Sequence record: MN850605.1
DNA from: Escherichia phage fjerdesal
DNA: 64,000 nt
Direction: 5' to 3' (one strand)
Below are positions 11,344-44,608 of the stretch, one piece after another; the stretch's first letter is position 1, and each line of letters begins with the position of its first letter. The notes under the pieces are model-generated. The model saw nothing but the letters and a program-made list of their open reading frames with translations, searched no databases and was not told the origin of the DNA. The translations under genes were made by a program, and so were the position numbers.

Positions 11344-11348
11344 AATTG

Positions 11349-11531: not shown

Positions 11532-11536
11532 ATTTG

Positions 11537-11615: not shown

Positions 11616-11617
11616 TG

Positions 11618-11693: not shown

Positions 11694-11699
11694 AAATCT

Positions 11700-12257: not shown

Positions 12258-12276
12258 CTAAATAGCCTCTTTAAAT

Positions 12277-12352: not shown

Positions 12353-12357
12353 AAAAT

Positions 12358-12435: not shown

Positions 12436-12436
12436 A

Positions 12437-12511
12437 TGGTACTCACTAAAGGACTTGAACCTTTTTCTTCATCTTGTAAGGGTGATGTTTTACCATATAA
12501 ACTAAGCGAGT
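12437..12511 (-). tRNA. tRNA-Val (anticodon TAC)
   Basis: D-stem GTTT/AAAC, T-arm AAAGG/TTCAAGT/CCTTT, anticodon loop CTTACAA, A73. Confidence 0.7.
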
Positions 12512-12518
12512 ATGAAAG

Positions 12519-12607
12519 AGGTCTGAAGTTGTGCCGCTAACTCAACTTCGTGGAATTTGTTACGGTCTTCAGTTGACTCAAAGCGGTCTTTCACTTGACC
12601 TCTGAAT
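12519..12607 (-). ncRNA. structured non-tRNA spacer element (GAGGTC...GACCTC closing stem, internal GAAGACCG motifs)
   Basis: 89-bp gap in tRNA array; terminal inverted repeat and internal hairpin, no canonical T-loop. Confidence 0.3.
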
Positions 12608-12683
12608 TGGTGCTCCCACAAGGACTCGAACCCTGATAAGTTGCTTACAAGGCAACCATAATAACCAATTATACGATAGGAGC
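12608..12683 (-). tRNA. tRNA-Thr (anticodon TGT)
   Basis: Anticodon stem GTTGC/GCAAC loop CTTGTAA, T-arm CAGGG/TTCGAGT/CCTTG, encoded CCA. Confidence 0.75.
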
Positions 12684-12690
12684 ATTAATT

Positions 12691-12765
12691 TGGAGCATCC
12701 AGAGGGAATCGAACCCTCAACCTCAGTTTGGAAGACTGTAATTTTCCCGTTTAAACTATGGATGC
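12691..12765 (-). tRNA. tRNA-Gly (anticodon TCC)
   Basis: Acceptor GCATCCA/TGGATGC, T-arm GAGGG/TTCGATT/CCCTC, loop CTTCCAA, U73. Confidence 0.75.
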
Positions 12766-12771
12766 ACTAAT

Positions 12772-12846
12772 TGGTGGAGTCACTGAGAATTGAACTCAGT
12801 TCCCAAGTTTGCAAAACTCGAATTTTAACCATATAAACTATGACCC
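12772..12846 (-). tRNA. tRNA-Ala (anticodon TGC)
   Basis: Acceptor with G3-U70 wobble (Ala identity), anticodon loop TTTGCAA, T-arm CTGAG/TTCAATT/CTCAG. Confidence 0.75.
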
Positions 12847-12854
12847 CCATTGTT

Positions 12855-12930
12855 TGGTACAGGTGGAGGGAATTGAACCCATCGTCTTACTGATTAAGAG
12901 TCAGCCGCATAACCATTTTGCTACACCTGC
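12855..12930 (-). tRNA. tRNA-Lys (anticodon CTT)
   Basis: Acceptor GCAGGTG/CACCTGT, anticodon stem GCTGA/TCAGT loop CTCTTAA, T-loop TTCAATT. Confidence 0.65.
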
Positions 12931-12937
12931 ATTAATT

Positions 12938-13014
12938 TGGTACACCTAGAGAGATTCGAACTCACACTGAGCAGATTCTAAGTCTGCTGCCTCTACCAGT
13001 TGGGCTATAGGTGC
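12938..13014 (-). tRNA. tRNA with anticodon TAG (Leu-type anticodon, short variable arm)
   Basis: Canonical D-arm GCC/AACTGGTAGA/GGC, perfect anticodon stem GCAGA/TCTGC loop CTTAGAA, T-loop TTCGAAT, A73. Confidence 0.65.
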
Positions 13015-13020
13015 ATTAAA

Positions 13021-13101
13021 TCTTTTTAGAGAACTTCTAAGAACCTGAGCAACAAGGTTCCACAACAAGCGACTAATAACCTTAGAAGCCCTCTAAAAAG
13101 A
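13021..13101. repeat. long inverted repeat (about 20-bp arms, about 40-nt loop) in tRNA cluster
   Basis: tctttttagagaacttctaag ... cttagaagccctctaaaaaga are reverse complements. Confidence 0.5.
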
Positions 13102-13268
13102 CCTAAATAGGTCTTTGCATAGTCTTGTTTAATCCGGTGACTAGAACCTTTGGAGAGCTTGATATTATCTCTTCTCCGTGACACCTACTAGGTGCTTTGA
13201 CAGTGTACGACAATACACGAGGGATAAACCGACAATGCGAACAAGCATGGACGGAGTAAATCTTATTA

Positions 13269-13358
13269 GGCGGTAAGTAAAGGAGTCGAACCCTCACCGT
13301 ATCTCTACAGTGGCAACAGTTTTCAAGACTGTTTGGCTGCCATTAGCCGCTACCTACC
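13269..13358 (-). tRNA. tRNA-Ser (anticodon TGA), type II
   Basis: Acceptor GGTAGGT/ACTTACC, anticodon stem ACAGT/ACTGT loop CTTGAAA, long variable arm, G73. Confidence 0.7.
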
Positions 13359-13371
13359 CCTAATAAGACTT

Positions 13372-13454
13372 TGGCATGGGACGGAGGAGTTGAACCCCTT
13401 TGAAACGGTTTTGGAGGCCGTTGCTCATGCCTTAGAGTCTTAACATCGTCCCAT
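13372..13454 (-). tRNA. tRNA-like gene, possibly tRNA-Trp (anticodon CCA) with atypical D-arm
   Basis: Perfect acceptor ATGGGAC/GTCCCAT, G73, encoded CCA, T-loop TTCAACT; anticodon stem AACGG/CCGTT enclosing 9-nt loop CCTCCAAAA. Confidence 0.45.
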
Positions 13455-13596
13455 ATTATAATTCGAAGCTTACCCTGTTATCTCAACACTGTCAAGCTTC
13501 TTCTCAGATTATTTACATGTTCTGGAAAACATGAGATACAGACCACCTCCCTACAGGAAGACCCGCTAAGGCCGTCTAAGTAATCTGCTAACTATT

Positions 13597-13673
13597 TGGT
13601 ACACCCTACAGGATTCGAACCTGTAACTAACGATTTAGAAGACCGTTGCTCTATCCAATTGAACTAAGGGTGC
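13597..13673 (-). tRNA. tRNA-Arg (anticodon TCT)
   Basis: D-arm GTTC/AATTGGATA/GAGC, anticodon stem ACGGT/ATCGT loop CTTCTAA, T-arm ACAGG/TTCGAAT/CCTGT. Confidence 0.75.
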
Positions 13674-13875
13674 ATTATCTTTAAAGACTCTCTTAGAAAG
13701 CCCTTAAAGATGCCCACCTTATTAATCATACCGTGGGCGAGTACGCCAAATTCTTTGATGAGGGATTGGAAGACCTCACTGGTGTTTAGCCTATCAAGCT
13801 ACTGCCAGAAAAACATTGTCGTTTGCATTTATTTTAAATTTGCAAAATAGACGCTACGCAACGAAAACTAAGGTT

Positions 13876-13904
13876 ACTATAAAGTAGTCACATCTCAATG
13901 TCAA
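13876..13904 (-). promoter_or_regulatory. sigma70-type promoter inside tRNA cluster (TTGACA-N17-TATAGT)
   Basis: Minus-strand TTGACATTGAGATGTGACTACTTTATAGT; reads toward tRNA-Arg(TCT) sub-cluster. Confidence 0.55.
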
Positions 13905-13919
13905 CAACTTTATTGAAAT

Positions 13920-13995
13920 TGGTACTGGTAGGTGGAATCGAACCACCGATGTTCCCTTATCAGGGGAGTGTTATAACCTTCTTAACTATACCAGC
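13920..13995 (-). tRNA. tRNA-Ile (anticodon GAT)
   Basis: D-arm GTTA/AGAAGGTTA/TAAC, T-arm GGTGG/TTCGATT/CCACC, loop CTGATAA. Confidence 0.7.
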
Positions 13996-13996
13996 T

Positions 13997-14073
13997 TGGA
14001 GGTTCAGATGGGAATCGAACCCACATTCATAGGGCTTATGAGACCCTTGCATTACCTTATCTGCGACTGAACC
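13997..14073 (-). tRNA. tRNA-Met (anticodon CAT)
   Basis: Acceptor GGTTCAG/CTGAACC, anticodon stem AGGGT/GCCCT loop CTCATAA. Confidence 0.7.
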
Positions 14074-14077
14074 ATAT

Positions 14078-14153
14078 TGGTAGAAGTGGAGGGATTCGAA
14101 CCCATCGCCTGTCAGATTAAAAGTCTGCCGCATCACCATTCTGCTACACTTCC
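14078..14153 (-). tRNA. tRNA-Lys (anticodon TTT)
   Basis: Acceptor GGAAGTG/CACTTCT, loop CTTTTAA, T-loop TTCGAAT. Confidence 0.65.
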
Positions 14154-14163
14154 ATTAAATTAT

Positions 14164-14297
14164 CTTTGTAGATAAGCTACCCAGACTTGCTTAAGGTCTG
14201 TAGCGATGTGCCTTTTTTGGGTTTAAATCTAGAATTTACCCATTCACCCTTTGTGGTCGCATACTCACAAGTAAGCTTAATAACTTATCTACAAAGG
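14164..14297. repeat. 13-bp perfect inverted repeat (ctttgtagataag / cttatctacaaag) separated by about 108 bp
   Basis: Exact reverse-complement arms at 14164-14176 and 14285-14297. Confidence 0.5.
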
Positions 14298-14299
14298 TA

Positions 14300-14440
14300 A
14301 TTACCAGACCGTTGTTTATCATCTTAAGTGCTACCATTACACCAACTCGACATCTGCCGAGTGAAGGAATCGAACCTTCGCCTTTTCTTTACCGGAGAAA
14401 TAGATTGTTTAAGTTTTGCTGTAAACGGCCTTCTGTAAAT
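14300..14440 (-). ncRNA. candidate Y-RNA-like element containing a circularly permuted tRNA-like module
   Basis: Minus strand order: T-arm GAAGG/TTCGATT/CCTTC (14363-14379), closed acceptor-like hairpin ACTCGGC-AGAT-GTCGAGT (14345-14362), D-arm-like GTG/TAATGGTAG/CAC (14328-14343); flanked by AGGCCGTT / AACGGTCT complementary segments; no anticodon arm. Confidence 0.35.
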
Positions 14441-14586
14441 TTGTTGAGCCAGACCAAGTTTTAAATTTTCAAAATTAAATTGGCTTGAAAATATCATACG
14501 TTCTTGCTGAATTTGGTCTTCTGCTCCTTTAAAGAATACTCGTAAGAACTCTTTAAGGGAGGGGCTAAATAGCCCTCTCAAAATTG

Positions 14587-14661
14587 GCGGCTACGATGAG
14601 ACTTGAACTCACATCATCTCCCGTGACAGGGGAGTATTTTCTCCAGTTAAACTACATAGCC
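14587..14661 (-). tRNA. tRNA-Asp (anticodon GTC)
   Basis: Acceptor GGCTATG/CGTAGCC, perfect anticodon stem CTCCC/GGGAG loop CTGTCAC, G73, encoded CCA. Confidence 0.75.
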
Positions 14662-14666
14662 TTTAT

Positions 14667-14754
14667 TGGTGTGCCGTGTAGGAGTCGAACCTACCGAGTC
14701 TCAATGACAAGGGATTTACAGTCCCCACCGCTACCATCTACGGGATAACGACAC
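14667..14754 (-). tRNA. tRNA-Tyr (anticodon GTA), type II
   Basis: T-arm GTAGG/TTCGACT/CCTAC, anticodon loop CTGTAAA, long variable arm. Confidence 0.7.
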
Positions 14755-14762
14755 ATTTAATT

Positions 14763-14839
14763 TGGCGGTTAGTCAGGGATTCGAACCCTGTGCCATTCGC
14801 TTAACAGGCGACCGCACATACCTTATGTGCTTCCTAACC
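14763..14839 (-). tRNA. tRNA-Asn (anticodon GTT)
   Basis: T-arm CAGGG/TTCGAAT/CCCTG, anticodon loop CTGTTAA, G73. Confidence 0.65.
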
Positions 14840-14917
14840 TTAATACATTGCCAGACCGTGTTTTTTCTTTTATCCGCAAAAAAGTATTTTGTTGCTGAAT
14901 ACGGTCTTCTGCAAAAT

Positions 14918-14994
14918 TGGAGGCGGGTGCAGGAGTCGAACCTGCCGATACCATGCTAATGAGACATGTGAGACGCCCTTTCTCTATACCCGCA
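14918..14994 (-). tRNA. tRNA with anticodon CAT (Met or lysidine-type Ile2)
   Basis: T-arm GCAGG/TTCGACT/CCTGC, anticodon stem CATGT/GCATG loop CTCATTA. Confidence 0.6.
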
Positions 14995-15085
14995 ATTCTT
15001 AATGACCAGACCAAATCTCTTCTTTGTCCGATTTACCTTCAGATGAATAAGATTAAGTTTGCTGTAATTGGTCTTCTGTCAAAAC

Positions 15086-15163
15086 TGGCGTTCCAGAAGG
15101 GATTTGAACCCTCAGATATCCACTTTGAAAGAGTGGTGACTATACCATTTTGTCTACTGGAAC
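15086..15163 (-). tRNA. tRNA-Glu (anticodon TTC)
   Basis: Acceptor GTTCCAG/CTGGAAC, perfect anticodon stem CCACT/AGTGG loop CTTTCAA, G73. Confidence 0.75.
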
Positions 15164-15170
15164 ATTAATT

Positions 15171-15247
15171 TGGTCTCTGTTGGAGGACTTGAACCTCCGG
15201 CCTTACCGCCCCAAACGGAACGCTCTACCAATCTGAGCTAAACAGAG
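15171..15247 (-). tRNA. tRNA-Pro (anticodon TGG)
   Basis: Perfect acceptor CTCTGTT/AACAGAG, D-arm GCTC/AGATTGGTA/GAGC, loop TTTGGGG, T-arm GGAGG/TTCAAGT/CCTCC. Confidence 0.75.
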
Positions 15248-26807: not shown

Positions 26808-27056
26808 TTAGTTGTAACCTTGTTTATTGTAGTACAGTGAGATAATCAAGTCACCCCAGTAATGATAGTGATGCTCGTCGTTTAATGCCTCTTTTACAGC
26901 GTCTTTCCAGAAGTCATCAGTAGGGTTATAATCTGGGATAACTTGCTTGATAACTGTCTTCACTAATGAAAAGCATTCATCAGTTCCACCGATATCAAAT
27001 TTAACGTCCAGAGTATAACAGCCATAAGCATTGACAGTTGCGCGGATAGTTGCCAT
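26808..27056 (-). CDS. hypothetical early protein
   Basis: 82-aa ORF preceded by conserved promoter-hairpin-SD cassette. Confidence 0.55.
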   Translation of the reverse strand: MATIRATVNAYGCYTLDVKFDIGGTDECFSLVKTVIKQVIPDYNPTDDFWKDAVKEALNDEHHYHYWGDLIISLYYNKQGYN

Positions 27057-27122
27057 TTTTTGAATCTCCTAGTTTAAGGACTTTACTTAGTGGGGAAGGT
27101 CATTCCCTCCCCGTTGATTAGT

Positions 27123-27151
27123 AATTTACTGCATGTTGGCGTATGTTGCAA
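27123..27151 (-). promoter_or_regulatory. early promoter cassette type A (TTGCAA-N17-TAAATT) followed by 5' hairpin and SD
   Basis: -10 overlaps stop codon of upstream gene; hairpin GGGGAGGG/CCTTCCCC then AGGAGA SD. Confidence 0.55.
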
Positions 27152-28203: not shown

Positions 28204-28545
28204 TTAACTGATGAATATTTTTTCAGGTTTTACATAGCTGATACGCTGACTTTTTAGCAGGTCATCCCAGATTAACGCGGCGATATGGGCATAACCGGAT
28301 TCACGTAAAAGCTTCATTGTTTTACTTCTCGTTTCAAAACGGCTTGCGTAGTACTCACTATTTAAAACCGTTTTATTCCCTTCGTTATCTACATGGATAA
28401 TCTGCATCACTTGAAAGGGGCTTGTGTCCTCGCCTTTGTTCCACTGTTCAAAGTATTTTAGGCACTGCATAGGTGACATCTTATCACTTACTTGAGTTGA
28501 CCAAGATGAATTTTCTTTATCGGTAATTACGGTTACATAAGCCAT
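28204..28545 (-). CDS. hypothetical early protein
   Basis: 113-aa ORF. Confidence 0.55.
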   Translation of the reverse strand: MAYVTVITDKENSSWSTQVSDKMSPMQCLKYFEQWNKGEDTSPFQVMQIIHVDNEGNKTVLNSEYYASRFETRSKTMKLLRESGYAHIAALIWDDLLKSQRISYVKPEKIFIS

Positions 28546-28610
28546 TTTTGAATCTCCTAGTTTAAGGATTGTACTTAGTGGGGAAGGTCATTCCCTCCCC
28601 GTTGATTGAC

Positions 28611-28639
28611 AATTTACAGATTTTTATCAGGCTTGTCTA
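28611..28639 (-). promoter_or_regulatory. early promoter cassette type A (TAGACA-N17-TAAATT)
   Basis: Same architecture. Confidence 0.5.
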
Positions 28640-28870
28640 GTCTTTTTCAATGATAATTTCATACTGACCATCTACGCTGTCAAAATAGATACCGTCTTCA
28701 TCTTCTGTCTTAAAGTAACATTGTATATCATCACTAGCGGGATAGTCTTGTCTTGCTATCTGACAGACCTGAACAGCATTTTCTTTACTTCCTGTAAACT
28801 CCTCAAGCCCTTTAAAATCACATGAATGACCATTACAAATAGAAAGGATAAGATAAACGGTTGTAAGCAT
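28637..28870 (-). CDS. hypothetical small secreted/membrane protein (Cys-containing)
   Basis: 77 aa with N-terminal hydrophobic segment MLTTVYLILSICNGHSC. Confidence 0.5.
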   Translation of the reverse strand: MLTTVYLILSICNGHSCDFKGLEEFTGSKENAVQVCQIARQDYPASDDIQCYFKTEDEDGIYFDSVDGQYEIIIEKD

Positions 28871-28936: not shown

Positions 28937-29479
28937 TTAGAAAAAGCTCTTTAAATCTCTCTCTGTGATGTTTCCCGCTAGTGTATCCATGATGTCACAA
29001 AAAACCTGAATACTATCCGACTGTTGAATACTTTTAGCAAGAAGCTCCAGAGACTCATCAAGATAATTTAAATTTGGGTTATCCAATGAAGGAAGACAAA
29101 AAGGCGAAAACATCGCATTAAACTCGGTTACGTAAACCTTTTTAATCCAATTTAAATCGAAGTATTCTGTAAAACTTGCTACGCCAGACATATTATCACA
29201 AGAATAATCATCATTCAGGTCATCCTCTGGGATATCAAGTTCTAAGATAACAATATTTTGGGTTTTCATCTGGAAAGCGGCCGTAATAGTGGCATTACCT
29301 AACGCTTGCTGGATGCCTTCGGCTGTTATCTCTTCCTCATCGTCGCCATAGATTTTATTTTCTGGATACACGTAAAAATTGCCGTCCATGTCCGAACAAT
29401 TCCATGCACCTGATGGCTTGTCACCGTTATTAATCAGGTTGAGGAAATTTTCTTGAGTAGTACCGTGAAAGCATTTCAT
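28937..29479 (-). CDS. hypothetical early protein, possible ADP-ribosyltransferase fold (HGT motif)
   Basis: 180 aa; N-terminal FHGTTQENFLNLINNG resembles the H-G-[ST]...N...I...G NAD-binding motif of H-Y-E class ARTs (PARP/diphtheria-toxin/Tpt1-like), followed by GNFYVYPE; unverified. Confidence 0.5.
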   Translation of the reverse strand: MKCFHGTTQENFLNLINNGDKPSGAWNCSDMDGNFYVYPENKIYGDDEEEITAEGIQQALGNATITAAFQMKTQNIVILELDIPEDDLNDDYSCDNMSGVASFTEYFDLNWIKKVYVTEFNAMFSPFCLPSLDNPNLNYLDESLELLAKSIQQSDSIQVFCDIMDTLAGNITERDLKSFF

Positions 29480-29530
29480 TTTTGAATCTCCAGTTTAGGA
29501 TTTAGTGGTAAAGCTCTTTATCTGGGGCTT

Positions 29531-29559
29531 ACTTTATCGAACTATAAGCCCCTTGTAAA
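29531..29559 (-). promoter_or_regulatory. early promoter cassette type B (TTTACA-N17-TAAAGT) with GGGGCTTA/TAAGCCCC hairpin
   Basis: Near-identical cassette copies at about 30333, 31404 and 31751. Confidence 0.5.
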
Positions 29560-29564
29560 GTACT

Positions 29565-29768
29565 TTATTTGTTATTTTTTACTACTTTTAAAACCGCACG
29601 ATAGCCTAAGCAATAGGAATCACCGAAGAGCGACCGACCCATGAAGGAGTCCTCTGTAATATCTTTCGCCGTGACGGTTTTTTCTACGCCGTGAAAGAGA
29701 ACTACATCACCGACTTTAATATCTTTGATGTGTGTAGTTTCAATGGTTAAACCGTTAATAATAGCCAT
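29565..29768 (-). CDS. hypothetical early protein
   Basis: 67-aa ORF. Confidence 0.5.
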   Translation of the reverse strand: MAIINGLTIETTHIKDIKVGDVVLFHGVEKTVTAKDITEDSFMGRSLFGDSYCLGYRAVLKVVKNNK

Positions 29769-29831
29769 TTTTGAATCTCCAGTTTAGGACTTTATTTAGT
29801 GGGGAAGGTCATTCCCGCCCCGTTGATGTGT

Positions 29832-29860
29832 AATTTAATCTATCTGAAAACCAATGTCAA
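29832..29860 (-). promoter_or_regulatory. early promoter cassette type A (TTGACA-N17-TAAATT)
   Basis: Consensus -35; preceded on plus strand by T14 tract. Confidence 0.55.
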
Positions 29861-29875
29861 CAATTTTTTTTTTTT

Positions 29876-30280
29876 TTAGAGTTCTGCATAAATTGCATCA
29901 CAGATACCACGAAAATCATGATTTGTCAAATTACGTTGTAACCAAGTGGCGAAAAAGTCAGCGATTGCAAAGTTAGCGTCATACTCGACAGATAGCCACA
30001 CTTTAACAGCAAACCGAAACATTTTCAAATCAAGCTCTTTATTCATTACCTTAGATTTGCCTAACATGTCGGACATTTCATATTGTGCACCGTCTAGCGT
30101 GATACCTGCTGCAACGTCAGCCAATGAGTTTTTTACGTTTTCAACGTCTAAGATAACGCTTTGAATCTTCCCAATAATGTTGTGCAATGTTTCGTCCGGT
30201 GCTGATGACGTAATAACATTAATCCGGTTAACGGTCAAACGTGCTTTTAAGATTGATAACTCGCGATTATTAATAGCCAT
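29876..30280 (-). CDS. hypothetical early protein
   Basis: Track ORF 29876..30295 trimmed: upstream MENLK codons are part of conserved cassette; SD-positioned ATG gives MAINNRE... Confidence 0.5.
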   Translation of the reverse strand: MAINNRELSILKARLTVNRINVITSSAPDETLHNIIGKIQSVILDVENVKNSLADVAAGITLDGAQYEMSDMLGKSKVMNKELDLKMFRFAVKVWLSVEYDANFAIADFFATWLQRNLTNHDFRGICDAIYAEL

Positions 30281-30332
30281 TTTTAAGTTCTCCAATTTAG
30301 GATTTAGTGGTAAAGCTCTTTATCTGGGGCTT

Positions 30333-30361
30333 ACTTTATCGAACTATAAGCCCCTTGTAAA
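30333..30361 (-). promoter_or_regulatory. early promoter cassette type B (TTTACA-N17-TAAAGT)
   Basis: Cassette copy. Confidence 0.5.
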
Positions 30362-30366
30362 GTACT

Positions 30367-30639
30367 TTATACTAAATGCAGCTTTTTACCTTTTACTATG
30401 ATGTAACTCGATGCGCTATTGCTTTGCACATCCTGATAAATTCTGCGCAAACGGCCTTCGTAGTATACTTTCCAACTGGTTGGAATCTTTTTCCCGTATC
30501 CTGTAGCAGTTTTTTGTAGTCCTGCAAGTTGCCAATCTAAGATATGTTGTTCGGCTTGTAAATCCTCGAAGTGCATTACACCGTTCACATAGTGACGAAG
30601 GGTTACGTTTAAGGTGCGACCGTTGTTAGTAGTATACAT
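30367..30639 (-). CDS. hypothetical early protein
   Basis: 90-aa ORF. Confidence 0.5.
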   Translation of the reverse strand: MYTTNNGRTLNVTLRHYVNGVMHFEDLQAEQHILDWQLAGLQKTATGYGKKIPTSWKVYYEGRLRRIYQDVQSNSASSYIIVKGKKLHLV

Positions 30640-30701
30640 TTTGAATCTCCTAGTTTAAGGACTTTGTTTAGTGGGGAGGTCATTACCTCCCGTTGATTAG
30701 T

Positions 30702-30730
30702 AATTTACTTGTTTTAAAAACCAAAATCAA
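30702..30730 (-). promoter_or_regulatory. early promoter cassette type A (TTGATT-N17-TAAATT)
   Basis: Cassette copy. Confidence 0.5.
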
Positions 30731-31059
30731 GAGAAATTTTTTCGTTTGCTCAATTCTTGAACAATTACAGCGTAGTAGTCTTTTAAGTCACTGACATTTA
30801 AAGCATTTATCAGAGAATTATAATCATCGACTAACTGAAAATCATCTTTGAAAATGTCGCTGATTTGATAAGTTTTTGATTGAAATCTGAAGCTCATTTC
30901 TAACCGTTTTATTTGTTCATCACTTAAACGCTCCAGAAAGCTCATTACAAGGCTATTATTGACCTGTTGCGTGATTGCCTTATTTGCTAGATTATAGGCT
31001 TTATATGCCTTATATAGCGCGAAAATGGCAATGATTGCAGTGATACCAGTCATTAACAT
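30727..31059 (-). CDS. hypothetical membrane protein
   Basis: 110 aa with N-terminal TM segment. Confidence 0.5.
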   Translation of the reverse strand: MLMTGITAIIAIFALYKAYKAYNLANKAITQQVNNSLVMSFLERLSDEQIKRLEMSFRFQSKTYQISDIFKDDFQLVDDYNSLINALNVSDLKDYYAVIVQELSKRKNFS

Positions 31060-31349
31060 GGTGTTTCCTCTTTACGTGATACTTTGCCATTTACAGTTAT
31101 CTCATAAGAATCTAGTAAGTCACTTTTAGATTTTACTGGACTTTTAAAAGTATCATCATAAATATTTACTTGCAATACAGGTTTTTTATACTCCCTGCAA
31201 CTATTCCATAAACAAATCACTACACGACGGCCTTTTATTTTACCGTGCAACCATTCCATAACATCATGATTATTTCTTGATGTCTCGATAAAATCAATTT
31301 TGTTGAGTAACTTGCTTAGATTTTCACGAACTTTATTGGATAATTTCAT
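31053..31349 (-). CDS. hypothetical early protein
   Basis: 98-aa ORF. Confidence 0.5.
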   Translation of the reverse strand: MKLSNKVRENLSKLLNKIDFIETSRNNHDVMEWLHGKIKGRRVVICLWNSCREYKKPVLQVNIYDDTFKSPVKSKSDLLDSYEITVNGKVSRKEETPC

Positions 31350-31403
31350 TTTTGAGTCTCCTAGTTTAAGGGTTAATTTGATAAAGCTCTTTATCTGGGG
31401 CTT

Positions 31404-31432
31404 AAGATATCAACTTTTAAGCCCCTTGTAAA
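31404..31432 (-). promoter_or_regulatory. early promoter cassette type B variant (TTTACA-N17-TATCTT)
   Basis: Cassette copy. Confidence 0.45.
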
Positions 31433-31440
31433 GTACTTTA

Positions 31441-31698
31441 TCAGATTAAATTGCCAGTTAATGATAAGTGCATTTTGTAACCTTGTTTAGTGAATACGTT
31501 CACTTTACCGAGTGTTTTTACACCTTTAAAAAGGTTATTTGAACTGCGTTTTAAGGTTAAATGTTTATCAGCCTTCACGCCCCACCTTACATTAGATTGT
31601 TTTCCGTTGTCAACCACTTTCCCGCATAACTTTTTAGCCATAACGCGAGCGTCATCACGAGTTTTTGCAGCAATTACAACGTTTTTGATAATAGCCAT
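31441..31698 (-). CDS. hypothetical early basic protein
   Basis: Track ORF 31441..31713 trimmed to cassette-positioned ATG (MAIIKNV...). Confidence 0.5.
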   Translation of the reverse strand: MAIIKNVVIAAKTRDDARVMAKKLCGKVVDNGKQSNVRWGVKADKHLTLKRSSNNLFKGVKTLGKVNVFTKQGYKMHLSLTGNLI

Positions 31699-31750
31699 TT
31701 TTAAGTTCTCCAATTTAGGATTTAGTGGTAAAGCTCTTTATCTGGGGCTT

Positions 31751-31779
31751 ACTTTATCGAACTATAAGCCCCTTGTAAA
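31751..31779 (-). promoter_or_regulatory. early promoter cassette type B (TTTACA-N17-TAAAGT)
   Basis: Cassette copy. Confidence 0.5.
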
Positions 31780-31784
31780 GTACT

Positions 31785-32165
31785 TTATTTAATTTTGAAG
31801 ATAGTTACGTAACCATCACTACCGATTATTTGAGACACTCCAGCTTTTTCTACTTGATAGCCCATATTTTCAAGATGATAAACAGCATCATCATAACCAT
31901 ATGCGCCACCCTGATAACGTCTCTTATCGCATTTTATCAGGTTTTTACCACGTCCCGCAAGTGCATGCAAAATGGCTTTTTCACTTGAAAGAGTACCATC
32001 TAGCATTGTCGCCGTGTAATGGTTGATTTTATTCCCGTTAATATCATACTTGAAATTGAACGAGTGAACAACAATAACGTTACCTTTAAAATTCTCATCA
32101 AGTGACTTCTCCAGTACGCTACGAAAGTTGTCTTTGTTGATGAATTTAGGTGCACGATATTTCAT
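31785..32165 (-). CDS. hypothetical early protein (first gene of array)
   Basis: 126-aa ORF. Confidence 0.55.
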   Translation of the reverse strand: MKYRAPKFINKDNFRSVLEKSLDENFKGNVIVVHSFNFKYDINGNKINHYTATMLDGTLSSEKAILHALAGRGKNLIKCDKRRYQGGAYGYDDAVYHLENMGYQVEKAGVSQIIGSDGYVTIFKIK

Positions 32166-32214
32166 TTTTGAATCTCCTAGTTTAAGGACTTTAATTTTTG
32201 GGGTCCGGCATTTC

Positions 32215-32227
32215 CCCCCCCCCCCCG
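32215..32227. repeat. homopolymeric C13 (G13 on minus strand) in 5' leader hairpin position
   Basis: 13 consecutive C at 32215-32227, replacing the GGGGAGGG arm seen in other cassettes. Confidence 0.7.
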
Positions 32228-32236
32228 TTGATGCAA

Positions 32237-32265
32237 ATACTAGATAACCCCGTTCAAAGAGTCAA
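32237..32265 (-). promoter_or_regulatory. strong sigma70-type promoter (TTGACT-N17-TAGTAT) heading the early gene array
   Basis: Minus strand TTGACTCTTTGAACGGGGTTATCTAGTAT followed by CAACGGGG leader. Confidence 0.6.
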
Positions 32266-32385
32266 GAAAATTTTAAAAATATTTTTGGGAAAACTGTAAT
32301 GAAACGTGCGCACACGACTACCACAAAACAGAACACAAATCAAGAATTATTTTTCAATCCGCTACAAATTTTTCTCTTGACTTTT

Positions 32386-32416
32386 GGGGAGAGGGGGAGT
32401 AAGAGGGGGAGAGGGG
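32386..32416 (+). other. G-quadruplex-forming motif (G4-N3-G5-N7-G5-N3-G4)
   Basis: GGGGAGAGGGGGAGTAAGAGGGGGAGAGGGG on plus strand. Confidence 0.5.
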
Positions 32417-32440
32417 TTGGTCTGGCTCTCTATAAAAACC

Positions 32441-32624
32441 TACCTGCACAATTCTAAAATGATTTTTCTTGCCCGACCTGAGCGGGGTCTGCACGTTTTG
32501 AAAATGAAAAAGCTCTTTGGAGATTACCTGCACAGTTTGAAAATGAATTTTTCTCTTTGGAGTTCAAAATACTCTCTACAGATTTCTCTATAGAGATATA
32601 CCTGCACAATTCTGAAATGAAAAA
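32441..32624. promoter_or_regulatory. iteron-like direct repeats (TACCTGCACARTTYTRAAATGAA, 3 copies plus 1 degenerate)
   Basis: Copies at about 32441, 32488 (degenerate), 32524, 32598. Confidence 0.5.
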
Positions 32625-32693
32625 GCCCTCCTTACCTGAAAAATTTACCAGATAAGAAAGGCTTAGTCTATTGTGAATATCCTACGAAGTTTC

Positions 32694-33479
32694 TTAGTTC
32701 TTTGCGGCTAAGAAGGTAACTTCTGGCGAAGAGAAAACTGTCTCGATATCCTCATCAGTTCTTGCATAGATGTAAGTATCTGCATCACTGCCAAATGTTA
32801 CTGCAATCCTGTGATTGCTCTTCGACAGGTGGGTAACTAGAGCGTTACTTAGAGACATCTTTTCAACCGGAGGGTTACTTTGATGTATCTTACCTTTTCT
32901 TCGTCTGAAGAGGGTAACTGCATTATCCGTGAACACAACTACACCTGCGAAGTATTCTGGTTCACAGTAGTTCTTCCAACCTGAGCGTAACTTGTGGTAC
33001 ATCTCTCCTTCATAGACATATAGATAAACATCTACGCTCTTCATTACCTGATTGATGATAACTGTGACGGCTTGAGGGTCCAACCCACCGATACCTGCAC
33101 CAATCATAGGTAAACCAACTTTCTTCAACTGATTAACTTCACAGTATCTGTTAAGTTGCTTCAAAGATGACTCTAAAGCACTGTATCGGGCATCTTTACC
33201 AGTCTTAAGCTGAGTGTAAAGGTTAGCTATACGACCTTGTTTTAAACGTGCTACGGAGAAATTACCTAGTAAATTTTCACAGGGTTTGTGGCCTATACCA
33301 CCTGCATATAGATAAACTTCTGTATCGGTCTCATATGCTTCTGGGTAAAGTTTAGAAATCTTGTCAGCGATACCTGCACCCATTAAATTCATACAGTTGC
33401 AACCGTGACCAATGATGTCAAACTTACCTTTATCAAATGCAGCAAAGATGTCACCATTGATGATTTTTACAATACCCAT
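32694..33479 (-). CDS. macro-domain protein (ADP-ribose binding/processing) with C-terminal extension
   Basis: 261 aa; N-terminal INGDIFAA...FDIIGHGCNCMNLMGAGIADKI and VGLPMIGAGIGGL match macro-domain glycine-rich motifs. Confidence 0.6.
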   Translation of the reverse strand: MGIVKIINGDIFAAFDKGKFDIIGHGCNCMNLMGAGIADKISKLYPEAYETDTEVYLYAGGIGHKPCENLLGNFSVARLKQGRIANLYTQLKTGKDARYSALESSLKQLNRYCEVNQLKKVGLPMIGAGIGGLDPQAVTVIINQVMKSVDVYLYVYEGEMYHKLRSGWKNYCEPEYFAGVVVFTDNAVTLFRRRKGKIHQSNPPVEKMSLSNALVTHLSKSNHRIAVTFGSDADTYIYARTDEDIETVFSSPEVTFLAAKN

Positions 33480-33680
33480 TTAACATCTCTCCCAAGATTC
33501 TTTATCTTCTGAAGGTTTTACACGTTGCCCTTCATGGTCTACCCAGATGCACCCACAACCTTCACAGATTACTGGCATTGCATAACCAGCTTTAAAGTCA
33601 TCTTCAGTGATGAGACCTTTTAAGTCACCTGTATCACGTCCGAACATTTCGATAGAACAATCTTTGCAGAAGTCAGCCAT
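33480..33680 (-). CDS. hypothetical small Cys-rich (zinc-ribbon-like) protein
   Basis: CKDC...CEGCGC motifs; start chosen at internal ATG, uncertain (track ORF 33480..33758). Confidence 0.35.
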   Translation of the reverse strand: MADFCKDCSIEMFGRDTGDLKGLITEDDFKAGYAMPVICEGCGCIWVDHEGQRVKPSEDKESWERC

Positions 33681-33900
33681 TGATAATTGCCTCTTGAATG
33701 ATGATACCTTTACCACAACGACTTTTAAAGTCTTCCAATGGCTGGGAGATAAAGCCACGTAAGCAATAACTGAATGCTAATTTTTTCCTGTAGATTATCA
33801 CATCATTTGCTGTAAAAGGAATCACTTCATTTCTTCCAATGGATACTGCTGACCGGATAATTTTCCGTGTCTTTTTATCTCTGGCTAGTATTACTTTCAT
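33673..33900 (-). CDS. hypothetical protein
   Basis: 75-aa ORF. Confidence 0.4.
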   Translation of the reverse strand: MKVILARDKKTRKIIRSAVSIGRNEVIPFTANDVIIYRKKLAFSYCLRGFISQPLEDFKSRCGKGIIIQEAIING

Positions 33901-41609: not shown

Positions 41610-43391
41610 TTAAAGCTGCTTGTCAATATTATTTCGAATATCACCAAGAGTTGTGTAACCGTACTGCTCAGAGTCGCTAAAGACTAAACGTAAAGCACAA
41701 GCTGGATGTTCAAGTGCATCTGCAAAGCTCTGGAATCCATAGCCATCTACAGCTTTCAAATTCTCACCATCCCACATAGGTGCTACACCACCAAAGGCAG
41801 ATTTCTTAACACCACTATCTGTTTTAGGGTCTTTTGCAAGCATAATCTCTTTGCCACCAATGCTTGCAAGAGTTGCTTTGACAGCAAATGCAAAGGTGTC
41901 ACGAGTCATGTACTGGTAAGTGTAAGAGCCTACACCAAACACCACGTTAGAGCTTGCAAACCCCATTTCATACAGACGCTTTAGGATTTCGTTTGCACGT
42001 TCCAACGTGATAGAGTCACCATAGATAAGTCCAATGTGCTCATCCAGTACCTTAAAACCTTTAGAGTTGATAGTTCCTCCAAAGATGTTATACAATGTCT
42101 TAATAGCTCCATCAATCTCTGCTACAGGGCGTGTTACAACGTTTGCAGAGCCAACCATATAAGCGTTCTTCAACATCACTGTGTCAGCAACTTCAAAGTC
42201 TTCTCTGTCAACAACCATTTCGTAGCCTTCTGACAGTAGCCATCCAGCAATACCATAGCTGACGTTTTCAAGCTTCATGTTCAGAACAGCATTCAGCATT
42301 GTGTCACTGGCTTCCAGCTTACTAAGGTGCTCATAATAAGCCTTTTTAGCGCACTCTAAGTGGATTGCTTTATAACCTGTGACAATGTGTACAGGGTCTC
42401 CAGAGTCAGGACGAATTACCAGTTTGCCATCACGTTCCATAATTTCTTTACGGAGTGCTGGTAAGATTTCTGACACAGTTCTCCAGAAGTTATAAGTATC
42501 TGAAACAATACTTGCAATACCCGTTGGGTAAGTTTCTGTTAAGAAACGACGGAAGGTTTGTAACTCACCTTTAAAGCGTCTTTCTTCTTCAATCAACTCA
42601 TTGCCACCTTCCCAAGCAATGTTTGCACACATTACAGAGTGCTCAGTGGCTGGTACAGAGCTACCAATATCAGAGATTGGGTAGGACTGTCCATAGATTC
42701 GTTTAGCCGTATACACAGCAGGGAAGCTATCAGTTCCTTTAAAGCTGGTTAAGTGACCTACAGCGTTAAATGCGTCATCAGTAAAGCCGGACATACCACG
42801 CATAGCAAAATCATGGCACTGATAAGGTAAATGTAAGTCATTGTCACAAGTAAGGTCAGCCCACTTCTTACAGATGCGTTTGTAATGCAATGCAATAGTT
42901 GCAATGGTGCAAGCCTTCCAAATTTCAGCAGAGAAAGCATCTTCCAGATAACCTGCTACCCAATGAAAACCTGAAACAGTGTTCTGAAAGACAATCATCG
43001 GGACACGCATTGGAACAACTGTGCCTTCTTCTACAGCGTATACTTCAACTGGTAGATAACCTAAGTCGTGAAGTGCTTCCCAATGCTCTCGACCGATAGC
43101 ATCTTTACCCAGAACACCATTCATGACTTCTAAGATTTCATCAATGGCTTCTTTTTTATCACGTTCAAAGAAAGTGGCATTCCAGTGGTCTATCAAGTAA
43201 TCTTTAACAAAACGTTGAATACCAAAAGCCACTACACCGTCAATTGCTAAAGGGCTGTTAAACCATTTATCACTACGTGGTGTTAGGTTGAACATCAAGT
43301 ACTCTGTTGCGCTAGGATACTGGTAAACATGACCAGATTTGTAAGCATCTGCATTTAAACCTGCTGGTACTGCATAAAGTGATTTAGTCAT
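41610..43391 (-). CDS. nicotinamide phosphoribosyltransferase family protein (NAMPT/NadV-like; possible NARP1 Namat)
   Basis: 593 aa; N-terminal NADAYKSGH... and overall NAPRTase-family look; adjacent to Prs-like gene. Confidence 0.7.
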   Translation of the reverse strand: MTKSLYAVPAGLNADAYKSGHVYQYPSATEYLMFNLTPRSDKWFNSPLAIDGVVAFGIQRFVKDYLIDHWNATFFERDKKEAIDEILEVMNGVLGKDAIGREHWEALHDLGYLPVEVYAVEEGTVVPMRVPMIVFQNTVSGFHWVAGYLEDAFSAEIWKACTIATIALHYKRICKKWADLTCDNDLHLPYQCHDFAMRGMSGFTDDAFNAVGHLTSFKGTDSFPAVYTAKRIYGQSYPISDIGSSVPATEHSVMCANIAWEGGNELIEEERRFKGELQTFRRFLTETYPTGIASIVSDTYNFWRTVSEILPALRKEIMERDGKLVIRPDSGDPVHIVTGYKAIHLECAKKAYYEHLSKLEASDTMLNAVLNMKLENVSYGIAGWLLSEGYEMVVDREDFEVADTVMLKNAYMVGSANVVTRPVAEIDGAIKTLYNIFGGTINSKGFKVLDEHIGLIYGDSITLERANEILKRLYEMGFASSNVVFGVGSYTYQYMTRDTFAFAVKATLASIGGKEIMLAKDPKTDSGVKKSAFGGVAPMWDGENLKAVDGYGFQSFADALEHPACALRLVFSDSEQYGYTTLGDIRNNIDKQL

Positions 43392-43436: not shown

Positions 43437-44318
43437 TTAATCAAGGTTTGCTACAGTAACTTGGCTATAATGTGTTAAGCCACGGTCTTTAGCTTCTCCT
43501 AAAGAGTTTGTAGTGTAGATATGGTCAATACCATTGTCAAGCAAGTTTTCAACATCTTTAGAGAAGATACCATGTGTTACATAGAGTTCCACACGTTTTG
43601 CACCTGCTTCACGAAGATGCTTAGCTGCTTCTATGAAGGTTCGACCACCATCACAGATATCATCCAGAATCATGACTGTTTTATCTGTCAAATCAACATC
43701 ATCAAGGATTCGCATACCAGTAATTTCACCAGTCTTAAGGTTACGCACCTTAGACATTGTGATATATGGTTTATCCACCTCTTTAGCGGTCTCTGCAACC
43801 TTCTTAGCAGCACCTGCATCTGGGGCTACTAAGTAATCAACCAGTGGGTCATTTGCATAGTGGACTGCAATCTCCTTTTGAGGAATACTCTGGAAGCAGT
43901 TAAACAGGTTATCTGGAACGTAACTGTGAGGGTCAACTGCACAGACTGCACCAAACCCCATTGCATTTATCTGTTTAGCAAAAACCTTTAAAGCTGCTGC
44001 GTCGCCTTTAAACATGTGACGGTCATAACGTGCATTTGGTAAGTAGTAAAAGATGACAGTCTTTAAAGCATAATCATGAGGAATTAAATCATCAATTGCT
44101 TCTTTAGCAAGTGCCACAGCAAACAATGTATCCTTATCATAACCTTTTACAATCATAATCACATTGTTGATGGATGATGCTGCATAAGCAGTGAAATCAA
44201 CAAACTCTGGCGAAAAGTGTCCACCAATCTCACCAGAAGGAAATTGGATGATGTTAAACTCATCTTCATGAGTTCCTTTAGTTGGTGAATGAACTGTAAC
44301 ACGGATAGATGTTTTCAT
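43437..44318 (-). CDS. ribose-phosphate pyrophosphokinase family protein (Prs-like; possible NARP1 Adps)
   Basis: PRPP-binding motif VMILDDICDGGRT; start set at SD-preceded ATG (track ORF extends to 44333). Confidence 0.7.
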   Translation of the reverse strand: MKTSIRVTVHSPTKGTHEDEFNIIQFPSGEIGGHFSPEFVDFTAYAASSINNVIMIVKGYDKDTLFAVALAKEAIDDLIPHDYALKTVIFYYLPNARYDRHMFKGDAAALKVFAKQINAMGFGAVCAVDPHSYVPDNLFNCFQSIPQKEIAVHYANDPLVDYLVAPDAGAAKKVAETAKEVDKPYITMSKVRNLKTGEITGMRILDDVDLTDKTVMILDDICDGGRTFIEAAKHLREAGAKRVELYVTHGIFSKDVENLLDNGIDHIYTTNSLGEAKDRGLTHYSQVTVANLD

Positions 44319-44329
44319 AGTTTTCTCTC

Positions 44330-44608
44330 TCAATCAAAAGTTACGTTTGTTACTGCCATTGCAGATTTGCATTTTGCAGGGTCTACAACGTGATAAAGTA
44401 CACTACAGTTACCTGTGCTGTCTGGTACAGGTTTAACCCATTGTTGCTTGACAGTTGGTTCGCCTAAGTCTTTGTAAGAACCATCTGTAAAGTTGTTTAC
44501 CATCTCAAGTGCAATTGGCTCTGGAACATGACCACGTATCATGTACATTTCACAACCATTACCTCCTTCACTGACTAATGGTAAAATCTCCCACTTTTCT
44601 TTAGCCAT
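44330..44608 (-). CDS. hypothetical protein
   Basis: 92-aa ORF. Confidence 0.5.
   Translation of the reverse strand: MAKEKWEILPLVSEGGNGCEMYMIRGHVPEPIALEMVNNFTDGSYKDLGEPTVKQQWVKPVPDSTGNCSVLYHVVDPAKCKSAMAVTNVTFD

Follow-up and report, generated by a model that had tools for sequence, protein, structure and literature searches.

A two-domain variant of the Tk.4/AdfM macrodomain subfamily encoded in the early region of Escherichia phage fjerdesal

Gene Locus and Expression

The window (the whole 64,000-nt stretch of Escherichia phage fjerdesal, record MN850605.1, that was analysed) carries a complete macrodomain gene, whose product is built of two domains. GGGAGAG lies ahead of the ATG start codon, which directly abuts the TAA with which the upstream ORF ends. 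Two terminator-like hairpins bracket a co-directional block of ~2.7 kb, which contains spanin genes, small ORFs and the macro gene. The hairpin located past the macro gene is probably the end of the transcription unit.

32694..33479, minus strand: coding sequence of the two-domain macro protein, complete, with ATG start, 261 aa (from the ORF list)
32623..32664, minus strand: intrinsic-terminator-like hairpin of 17 pairs with a T-run, 30 nt past the macro stop codon
35302..35319, minus strand: upstream terminator-like hairpin

The flanking ORFs (33480-33758 and 31785-32165) contain no Pfam family, and the 530-nt ORF-free spacer downstream of the macro gene gave no match in Rfam. In annotated relatives, only small hypothetical genes flank the macro gene. 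A polynucleotide kinase gene is also located near it. No ART, NADAR or other ADP-ribose-related gene was found in the 20 window ORFs scanned and the annotated half-genome of a close relative. A literature search for Felixounavirus combined with “macro domain” yielded no match.

The ortholog of phage Felix O1 (ORF13 / Felix01p025) is 97% identical to the product of this gene. ORF13 is among the ORFs with maximal expression at 5 min post-infection (Table 3, PMC3185647), which agrees with the preliminary description, where the gene had been placed in the early region. The ortholog of phage SUSP1 was scored “Not Fit” (dispensable) on E. coli K-12, which is consistent with a conditional anti-defence gene.

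Macrodomain Fold and Active Site

The N-terminal part of the protein is a bona fide macrodomain, with match scores well beyond chance. This confirms the assignment made in the preliminary description from the letters of the sequence.

33009..33479, minus strand: macrodomain (Tk.4/Poa1p-like subfamily), aa 1-157, identified by Pfam Macro, AF2, Foldseek and identity to T4 Tk.4

The Pfam Macro HMM (PF01661) matches aa 25-141 at 32.1 bits (gathering cutoff 22, E=1.2e-7), and the phrog_335 profile extends over aa 1-260 (E=2.8e-113). The three-layer alpha/beta/alpha macro fold is found in the AF2 model of the full-length protein (pLDDT 91.6, pTM 0.89; macrodomain residues mostly at a pLDDT >90) and in its Foldseek matches. 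The best of these are Poa1p, TARG1 and DarG (E~1e-9 to 1e-10, probability 1.0), yeast Poa1p being the top one (6lfr, E=5e-10), and the target-normalised TM scores against Poa1p, TARG1, DarG and viral macrodomains range from 0.77 to 0.87. A family profile searched against the PDB matched TARG1, DarG, SCO6735 and Poa1p at E=1e-17 to 1e-11. The domain is predicted to bind or hydrolyse ADP-ribose.

Residue invariance was scored across 33 homologues. The translation contains both Gly-rich loops named in the preliminary description, DIIGHGCNCMNLMGAGIADKI spanning aa 21-41 and VGLPMIGAGIGGL spanning aa 121-133. Their cores, MGAGIA (33-38) and IGAGIGG (126-132), show no or almost no variation. In macrodomains, the first of these loops binds the diphosphate and the distal ribose.

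33393..33407, minus strand: H25-G-C-N28-C motif; H25, G26 and N28 are invariant in the 33 homologues
33366..33383, minus strand: Gly-rich loop 1, M33-G-A-G-I-A38; M33 and G36 are invariant, G34, A35 and I37 nearly so
33279..33323, minus strand: insertion of ~11-15 aa (aa ~53-67, TEVYLYAGGIGHKPC), delimited in alignments
33210..33224, minus strand: N86-L-Y-T-Q90 motif; N86, Y88, T89 and Q90 are invariant, L87 nearly so
33084..33110, minus strand: Gly-rich loop 2, P124-M-I-G-A-G-I-G-G132; P124, G127, G129 and I130 are invariant

The insertion at aa ~53-67 is restricted to the two-domain proteins and is absent in T4 Tk.4 and the other single-domain relatives. Within the active site, N28 aligns with N23 of PhiKZ AdfM and H25 with H32 of TARG1. 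Q90 takes the place of the catalytic Lys of TARG1 (K84) and DarG (K80), and G131 aligns with D125 of TARG1. As the K84/D125 dyad is replaced by Q90/G131, a TARG1-type Lys/Asp mechanism was rejected.

A Gln in place of the Lys is also present in SCO6735 of Streptomyces coelicolor (PDB 5E3B), which the family profile matches at E=5e-14. In this enzyme, Gln85 replaces the Lys and is positioned by Asn27; Q90 and N28 of the window protein are their equivalents by transitivity through TARG1 rather than by direct alignment. SCO6735 is a thymidine-ADPr DNA hydrolase, which is dead as Q85A and nearly dead as N27S (PMC9411070), and the N23A substitution in PhiKZ AdfM lowers DNA de-ADP-ribosylation (PMC13309987). 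SCO6735 differs from the window protein in that it is bacterial chromosomal, distant in sequence and devoid of such a C-terminal domain.

C-Terminal Domain

The C-terminal extension of ~100 aa, considered uncharacterised in the preliminary description, folds confidently as a separate domain.

32697..33008, minus strand: C-terminal beta-rich domain, aa 158-261, composed of one helix, six strands and a short helix

Modelled alone, aa 158-261 reach a pLDDT of 80.8, and the domain is also confident within the full-length model. The extension is conserved in 242 phage genomes, and the domain exists solely as a fusion partner of this macrodomain in Ounavirinae. Neither Pfam nor NCBIfam gave a match, and a Foldseek search against BFVD yielded nothing but the ortholog from phage SUSP2. 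A HMMER profile run against 1.84 billion representative proteins retrieved macro-fused relatives and two fragments only, of which one is a truncated gene call starting within the macro domain (P0034) and the other a 54-aa piece (P0045). Weak multi-stretch matches to PQQ/beta-propeller and YDG-repeat proteins were rejected as beta-strand repeat noise. Gene fission was considered as well: among the 12,470 ORFs of all loci retrieved, HMM searching revealed no split C-domain gene beside the single-domain macro genes, T4 tk.3-tk.1 included.

Purifying selection acts on the C-terminal domain, whose rate of evolution is two to three times that of the macrodomain. For the gene, dN/dS values of 0.12 and 0.29 were obtained. 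Moreover, a segment covering it is exchanged in two Felixounavirus contigs (L031 and L032), which are otherwise ~94% identical.

32508..33336, minus strand: segment swapped for a divergent allele (41% aa identity)

Both the dN/dS values and the exchange for so divergent an allele within a 94%-identical backbone are consistent with a functional gene subject to arms-race turnover. The pI of the domain varies from 4.8 to 9.5 among orthologs and no charge is conserved, which argues against a conserved DNA-binding role; the candidate of a conserved basic DNA-binding surface was rejected on the same pI range. The domain is thus far a module specific to this lineage and quick to evolve, which may bind a partner, either the host toxin, another host protein or DNA.

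Relationship to T4 Tk.4 and Other Macrodomains

The protein is a two-domain variant of the Tk.4/AdfM macrodomain subfamily and not a new system. T4 Tk.4 is 35% identical to it over aa 3-157 (E=1e-23), and T4 tk.4 is labelled phrog_335. The motifs HGCNC, MG(A/S)G(I/V)A, NLYTQ and PxIGAGIG, as well as a short post-Gln loop, are found in both proteins, and both genes are early/accessory. However, Tk.4 is a single domain of 155 aa, whereas the window protein adds the C-terminal domain of ~104 aa and the insertion of 11-15 aa; at 261 aa, it departs from the single-domain architecture (~155 aa) of the Tk.4 type. According to the HIDEN-SEQ preprint, tk.4 alone among the T4 genes is needed for resistance to DarTG2: it was the sole significant hit when transposon mutants were screened on a DarTG2 host, and its clean knockout sensitised T4. 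Tk.4 was named AdfM, anti-DarT factor macrodomain (10.1101/2025.11.20.689424). Within the Tk.4 type, this anti-DarTG2 phenotype is that of T4 only, established by genetic evidence in a preprint.

A neighbour-joining tree unites the two-domain clade and T4 Tk.4 in one clade with a bootstrap of 100, into which the PhiKZ AdfM outgroup is drawn too; the internal nodes of the tree have weak support. The Tk.4/two-domain clade excludes the Adpp of Vibrio phage Gary, which has been tested by experiment, as well as the Pseudomonas and RYC Adpp clades. The NARP1-linked macro protein of Acinetobacter phiAbaA1 falls inside it.

DarG models also detect the macro part of the protein (PADLOC PDLC02990, 48.1 bits, E=2.7e-13; NCBIfam NF048014, 48.3 bits), but the latter match lies below the equivalog cutoff of 250 and spans profile positions 4-153 of 338. 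With 48 bits against a cutoff of 250 and only partial profile coverage, DarG orthology was rejected. By comparison, the PADLOC model scores PhiKZ AdfM (gp104) at 132.9 bits against 48.1 for the window protein. PhiKZ AdfM is DarG-like, with the Lys, and 23% identical to the window protein; it is a biochemically proven phage DNA-ADPr hydrolase (PMC13309987).

The window protein has the same fold as DarG and PhiKZ AdfM (Foldseek E~1e-9 to DarG 5m3e and 5m3i), and shares with them the conserved Asn (N28, PhiKZ N23) and a GGLD loop. The same chemistry, a cleavage at C1'' of ADP-ribose, would be expected. DarG differs by its catalytic Lys (K80, in a PTK motif), which is Q90 here, and by its DarT-binding domain, to which the window C-terminal domain is unrelated; furthermore, no darT was identified beside the window gene among the flanking ORFs, which have no Pfam match. 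Poa1p and TARG1 (OARD1) give the best structural and PDB sequence matches (TARG1 at E=4e-17 with the family profile), but both are eukaryotic single-domain housekeeping enzymes, and TARG1 has the Lys/Asp dyad in place of Q90/G131.

NARP1 Genes and Comparison with Adpp

The window also encodes the NAD+ reconstitution pair that had been recognized in the preliminary description. Both NARP1 genes are located upstream of the macro gene, which is separated from Namat by ~8.1 kb and at least 14 genes.

41610..43391, minus strand: Namat (nicotinamide ADP-ribose transferase), possible functional partner; matches PDB 9W5W/9W5X at E=6e-128
43437..44333, minus strand: Adps-like PRPP-synthetase homologue, possible functional partner; Pfam Pribosyltran and Pribosyl_synth, PDB Prs matches

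The entries 9W5W and 9W5X are Namat (PMC12774641), while true NAMPTs match the product of 41610-43391 at ~1e-40 only. The adjoining Adps homologue is 35% identical (aa 75-279, 96 bits) to the Adps encoded in the Adps-macro-Namat operon of Vibrio phage Wyman. In all Ounavirinae loci with enough flank, NARP1 is found 7.5-10 kb upstream of the gene for the two-domain macro protein. This arrangement is also kept by Pectobacterium phage Wc4, whose Namat and macro proteins are 51% and 44% identical, respectively. In contrast to these loci, T4 has no NARP1 near its gene, and neither do most close single-domain relatives within 10 kb.

NARP1-associated macrodomain proteins, called Adpp, dephosphorylate ADPR-1''P to feed NARP1; the Adpp of Vibrio phage Gary (gp137) is an ADPR-1''P phosphatase in vitro and is needed to defeat aRES, and no Felix-like phage is included in the authors' Table S1 (10.64898/2026.01.28.702374). 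Like Adpp, the window protein has a Poa1p-like macrodomain, which is homologous and shows the same His/Asn/Gln/Gly-loop signature, and Adps and Namat are encoded in the same genome. It is only 28-30% identical to Adpp, in which HQ(C/A)NC, Y(G/A)Q and a longer post-Gln loop are found. Adpp is furthermore single-domain, forms a separate tree clade and is defined operationally by a location within two genes of Adps or Namat, whereas the window gene lies ~8 kb off, outside this range.

A serious rival possibility, though a less likely one than the DNA-directed reading below, is that the window protein fulfils the role of Adpp, converting the ADPR-1''P made by RES-type NAD+ phosphorylases (aRES) to ADP-ribose, from which NARP1 would rebuild NAD+. 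This would correspond to the “NARP1-AP” pathway with its third gene in trans, and would be compatible with a DNA-directed activity. The top structural match, Poa1p, is itself an ADPR-1''P phosphatase, and the NARP1-associated Adpp homologues (28-30%) carry the same H-x-x-N-C, N-x-Y-x-Q and P-x-I-G-x-G motifs. The in vitro activity of Gary Adpp and its requirement against aRES point in the same direction, as do Namat and Adps in the window and the constant presence of NARP1 in sufficiently flanked Ounavirinae loci, even in Wc4. In addition, the cloned aRES systems come from E. coli, Klebsiella and Enterobacter, which belong to the Enterobacterales, as do the bacteria that these phages infect. 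The macro gene is, however, located behind terminator-like sites and outside the operon, and the protein groups with the Tk.4 type (HGCNC/YTQ, short post-Gln loop), not with the Gary type (HQCNC/YGQ, longer loop). The absence of Felix-like phages from Table S1 and of NARP1 within 10 kb of most close single-domain relatives also speaks against such a role, and the co-occurrence in Ounavirinae may just mirror the conserved synteny of the subfamily. Because Adpp carries the same motifs, including the Gln, and the phiAbaA1 macro protein falls inside the Tk.4/Felix clade, sequence does not separate the two activities. The earlier suggestion that the protein handles ADP-ribose-derived immune signals is supported at the level of homology, via NARP1-linked Adpp acting on ADPR-1''P.

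Proposed Function

The location of the macro gene outside the NARP1 operon and the grouping with the Tk.4 type make an AdfM-like DNA de-ADP-ribosylase the best reading, which we adopt tentatively. For the catalytic activity, the substrate, the role of the C-terminal domain and the coupling to NARP1, we infer the following scheme. The protein would be an accessory enzyme directed against host defence, expressed early and useful under certain conditions. Its macrodomain would bind ADP-ribose and cleave off by hydrolysis the group carried at C1'' of the distal ribose, using an Asn28/Gln90-type active site of the SCO6735 kind in place of the Lys employed by DarG and TARG1. Physiologically, the substrate would most likely be the ADP-ribose put by host DarT2-type toxins on thymidines of single-stranded phage DNA. 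Its removal would restore replication, as inferred for T4 Tk.4 (AdfM), the closest characterised relative, and the free ADP-ribose released could serve as a substrate for the phage NARP1 pair (Adps, Namat). Further points in favour of this reading are the detection of the macro part by the DarG models and the precedent of SCO6735, in which a Gln at the catalytic-Lys position, positioned by an Asn, serves for thymidine-ADPr DNA hydrolysis. Against it stand the modest identity to Tk.4 (35%), the weak internal nodes of the tree, the occurrence of the same motifs in Adpp and the DarG-like, Lys-containing nature of PhiKZ AdfM, the biochemically proven enzyme. The reversal of DarT-type modification, already raised in the preliminary description, has support by homology, through the effect of T4 Tk.4 on DarTG2.

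Another ADP-ribose conjugate seems an improbable target, be it protein or RNA ADP-ribosylated by host or phage (e.g., CmdTAC-type mRNA modification) or a C1''-linked immune signal (e.g., His-ADPR of type II Thoeris). Macrodomains of the TARG1/SCO6735 group can also use proteins as substrates (PMC9411070), and a survey of viral NAD/ADPr systems made the case that soluble ADPr derivatives are the main targets of phage macrodomains (PMC9503650). His-ADPR is an ADPR derivative, recognised by a macrodomain in ThsA. However, activity of this kind has been shown for no relative in the subfamily, whose two published phenotypes concern DarTG2 and aRES, and no ADP-ribosyltransferase was found in the window ORFs scanned or the annotated half-genome of the close relative. 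It is very improbable that the protein binds ADP-ribose without catalysis, as a sponge or sensor, or that it is a housekeeping enzyme processing Appr-1''-p or O-acetyl-ADPR, with no part in defence evasion: the database labels (“phosphatase”, “O-acetyl-ADP-ribose deacetylase”), the nearby polynucleotide kinase gene, which hints at RNA repair, and the absence of the TARG1 catalytic Lys/Asp dyad would suit such roles, but the Asn and Gln essential in SCO6735, and the Asn of PhiKZ AdfM, are invariant here, relatives display clear anti-defence phenotypes, and a gene dispensable in a defence-poor laboratory host is nevertheless conserved in 242 genomes.

For an AdfM-like enzyme as well as for an ADPR-1''P phosphatase, the C-terminal domain could add a second mode of action, although we regard this as doubtful. 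While the macrodomain strips off the ADP-ribose adduct, or the phosphate of ADPR-1''P, the C-terminal domain might bind directly to the host enzyme responsible (DarT2 or a RES/NADase) and block it, or tether the hydrolase to the phage replisome or the NARP1 enzymes. If this were true, the protein would be a convergent analogue of the “hydrolyse plus sequester” strategy of DarG, built from an unrelated fold, and the removal of the modification would be coupled to NAD+ resynthesis. Present in ~240 genomes without a recognisable relative, the domain is a tractable piece of phage “dark matter”, and its partner could reveal a new mode of inhibition.

The protein sits between two counter-defence functions described recently within a single macrodomain subfamily, DNA de-ADP-ribosylation and the dephosphorylation of ADPR-1''P for NAD+ reconstitution. 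This position makes it a good test case for the question whether both can be served by one enzyme. Felix O1-type phages are widely used in Salmonella and E. coli typing, biocontrol and therapy. Knowledge of an early anti-ADP-ribosylation enzyme in these phages would help to predict their host range against DarTG- or RES-armed strains.

The macro gene and its locus

The window belongs to a Felix O1-type myovirus (Ounavirinae, Felixounavirus), and the DNA around the macro gene is 92-95% identical to dozens of Felix O1-type genomes. The gene itself (32694-33479, minus strand) is as the preliminary description had it: it starts with ATG and encodes 261 aa, and its translation contains both of the Gly-rich motifs quoted there. 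A small ORF ends immediately before its start codon, upstream of which is a ribosome-binding sequence (GGGAGAG). Annotations of relatives place the gene with spanin genes and small ORFs in a ~2.7-kb co-directional block, bounded by two hairpins and followed by a spacer:

35319-35302, minus strand: terminator-like hairpin at the other end of the block
32664-32623, minus strand: terminator-like hairpin (17 bp and a T-run), 30 nt past the macro gene stop
32166-32693: spacer of ~530 nt with no credible ORF, following the macro gene

This last stretch is conserved in relatives (88% identity in the IMG/VR contig L031) and unannotated in phage heid. It contains the terminator-like hairpins 32664-32623 and 32596-32573 and a promoter-like site (32265-32237); an Rfam scan of it gave no match.

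The assignment to an early region is backed for the ortholog, Felix O1 ORF13 (Felix01p025, 97% identity with the window protein), as it is one of the ORFs whose RT-PCR signal peaked at 5 min post-infection (Whichard et al. 2010, PMC3185647). In a CRISPRi-ART screen on E. coli BW25113 (PMC11879866 supplement), SUSP1 agp094 (795 nt, “Macro domain”), matched to the two-domain form by length and flanking-gene pattern rather than by alignment, was scored “Not Fit”. Dispensability on a laboratory host is what would be expected for a gene needed only against defences which that host lacks.

Several other features of the window were recorded:

10340-15247, minus strand: cluster of 26 tRNA genes, including Met x2, Gln x2, Leu x3, Arg x2, Lys x2 and Ser x2
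~29473-29581, 30271-30371, 31343-31441, 31685-31803: copies of one intergenic repeat family
~27045-27130, 28541-28651, 29754-29877, 30619-30741: copies of the other repeat family
55441-55941, minus strand: SegE-type GIY-YIG protein (E=9e-27)
55938-56462, minus strand: HNH_3 plus AP2 domain protein (E=1e-12)

The repeats (~80-120 nt) occupy intergenic spaces among the small ORFs that follow the macro gene on the minus strand, show 80-99% similarity both to one another and to copies in related phages, and are probably repeated promoter/terminator modules. The last two genes adjoin each other and are homing-endonuclease-like.

Macrodomain and predicted active site

The N-terminal part of the protein is identified as a macrodomain, a known kind of domain, by profile and model alike. 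The Pfam Macro search and structure prediction, both suggested as checks in the preliminary description, agree: the Pfam score exceeds the gathering threshold, and the AlphaFold2 model (pLDDT 91.6, pTM 0.89) has Poa1p, TARG1 and DarG as top Foldseek matches. A profile of 33 homologues retrieved TARG1, DarG, SCO6735, BT1257 and Poa1p from the PDB (E=1e-17 to 1e-11), and phrog_335 matches the protein over its whole length (E=2.8e-113).

Residues H25, G26, N28, M33, G36, A38, N86, Y88, T89, Q90, P124, G127, G129 and I130 are invariant in the alignment of these homologues. Sequence and profile alignments put Q90 where TARG1 (K84) and also DarG and PhiKZ gp104 (“PTK” motif) have their catalytic lysine, and G131 opposite TARG1 D125, which excludes the lysine mechanism of TARG1 and DarG. 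Glutamine at this position need not mean an inactive enzyme, since SCO6735, which hydrolyses thymidine-linked ADP-ribose on DNA, has Gln85 there, held by Asn27; activity is lost in its Q85A mutant and almost lost in N27S (PMC9411070). By transitivity through TARG1, the invariant pair N28/Q90 corresponds to Asn27/Gln85. A direct alignment further pairs N28 with PhiKZ gp104 N23, whose mutation lowers DNA de-ADP-ribosylation. Membership of the DarG, TARG1 or operonic Adpp (ADPR-1''P phosphatase) groups is ruled out by the defining features of each. The protein falls within the Tk.4/phrog_335 subfamily and carries an orphan domain in addition.

A rapidly evolving C-terminal domain

The orphan domain (aa 158-261) is predicted to consist of one helix, six strands and a short helix, with confidence both alone (pLDDT 80.8) and in the full-length model, whose pTM suggests a fixed orientation to the macrodomain. 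The 242 phage records that contain it all have Ounavirinae-sized genomes, and it is always part of the macro gene; more divergent two-domain forms are found in Pectobacterium, Erwinia and Hafnia phages. An HMM search of the fetched loci found no split gene for it beside single-domain macros. It is not related to the DarT-binding domain of DarG.

The rate of evolution is two- to threefold higher in the C-terminal domain than in the macrodomain (50% versus 78% identity, and 24% versus 52% in another comparison). The domain is nonetheless under purifying selection (median dN/dS 0.29 versus 0.12), and its net charge is not conserved. Two IMG/VR Felixounavirus contigs (L031 and L032) match the window at ~94% identity on either flank and carry a 41%-identical two-domain allele of the divergent P0009 type. 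Similarity to the window is lost from codon ~48 of the macro gene until ~190 nt beyond the stop (window 32508-33336), with the breakpoint within the first ~48 codons; this is an allele swap or a hot spot of recombination. In loci L020 and L021, the macro part differs from the window gene by dN ~0.04 and the C-terminal part by only 0.004-0.008, whereas in most other pairs the latter is faster; this discordance suggests intragenic recombination between the two segments. Fast evolution, purifying selection and locus turnover are, at the sequence level, signatures of a functional module engaging a variable partner.

Candidate substrates

Reversal of host ADP-ribosylation or handling of ADP-ribose-derived immune signals, as first proposed, gains support from homology to two experimentally studied relatives, T4 Tk.4 and the Adpp of Vibrio phage Gary. 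Tk.4 (155 aa, also phrog_335) is 35% identical to the window protein (E=1e-23) and shares its HGCNC, NLYTQ and PxIGAGIG motifs. It was the single significant T4 hit on a DarTG2 host, and its clean deletion sensitised T4; the protein was given the name AdfM, anti-DarT factor macrodomain (HIDEN-SEQ preprint). PhiKZ gp104, independently given the same name, is a different, DarG-like protein (133 bits on the DarG HMM, PTK lysine kept) with only 23% identity to the window protein; it strips DarT2-made ADP-ribose in vitro. An AdfM-like DNA de-ADP-ribosylase is our tentative first choice for the window macrodomain.

An Adpp-like activity is ranked second, as a less likely and not exclusive reading. 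Poa1p-like macrodomain genes lie inside 15% of operons of the NAD+ reconstitution pair Adps and Namat (NARP1), and the Adpp of Gary turns ADPR-1''P, which aRES makes by NAD+ phosphorolysis, into ADP-ribose, letting NARP1 defeat aRES (Osterman et al. preprint). The near-identical macro of Vibrio phage Wyman, encoded between Adps and Namat, is 28% identical to the window protein, and the Table S1 sequences of that preprint have the same His/Asn/Gln/Gly-loop signature; no Felix-like phage was found in that table. The Wyman locus (3129-6135) is a textbook three-gene Adps-macro-Namat (NARP1-AP) operon, in which the macro gene bears no annotation other than “hypothetical protein”. The NAD+ reconstitution pair noted earlier in the window is borne out:

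41610-43391, minus strand: Namat homologue, 593 aa (solved Namat structures 9W5W/9W5X at E=6e-128, versus ~1e-40 for true NAMPTs)
adjoining the preceding gene: PRPP-synthetase-like protein, 298 aa

The Namat homologue is ~100 aa longer than crystallised Namat (491-496 aa), and its match is split in two stretches, which points to an insertion at about aa 350-430.

Wherever an Ounavirinae locus offers enough flanking sequence, NARP1 is 7.5-10 kb upstream of the two-domain gene, and Pectobacterium phage Wc4, though distant, is no exception. This co-conservation lends some weight to an Adpp-like role but may just mirror the rigid synteny of Ounavirinae. Other observations speak against that role: at least 14 genes and ~8 kb separate NARP1 from the macro gene, which sits behind terminator-like sites, and most single-domain close relatives, including T4, have no NARP1 within 10 kb. 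The two-domain clade also joins Tk.4 in a large neighbour-joining clade (bootstrap 100, although the PhiKZ outgroup is drawn in too, probably by long-branch attraction, and internal nodes are weak). Characteristic of this clade are HGCNC/YTQ and a short loop following the Gln; Adpps of the Gary, Pseudomonas and RYC types, with HQ[CA]NC, Y[GA]Q and a longer loop, branch elsewhere. The two groups are not cleanly separated, since Acinetobacter phage phiAbaA1 has a NARP1-linked macro that belongs to the Tk.4 clade.

Since in both substrates the leaving group is attached to C1'' of the distal ribose, we infer that one enzyme could plausibly process both, hence the ranking of AdfM-like first and Adpp-like second without exclusion. 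Under either reading, the product would be free ADP-ribose, the substrate of Adps.
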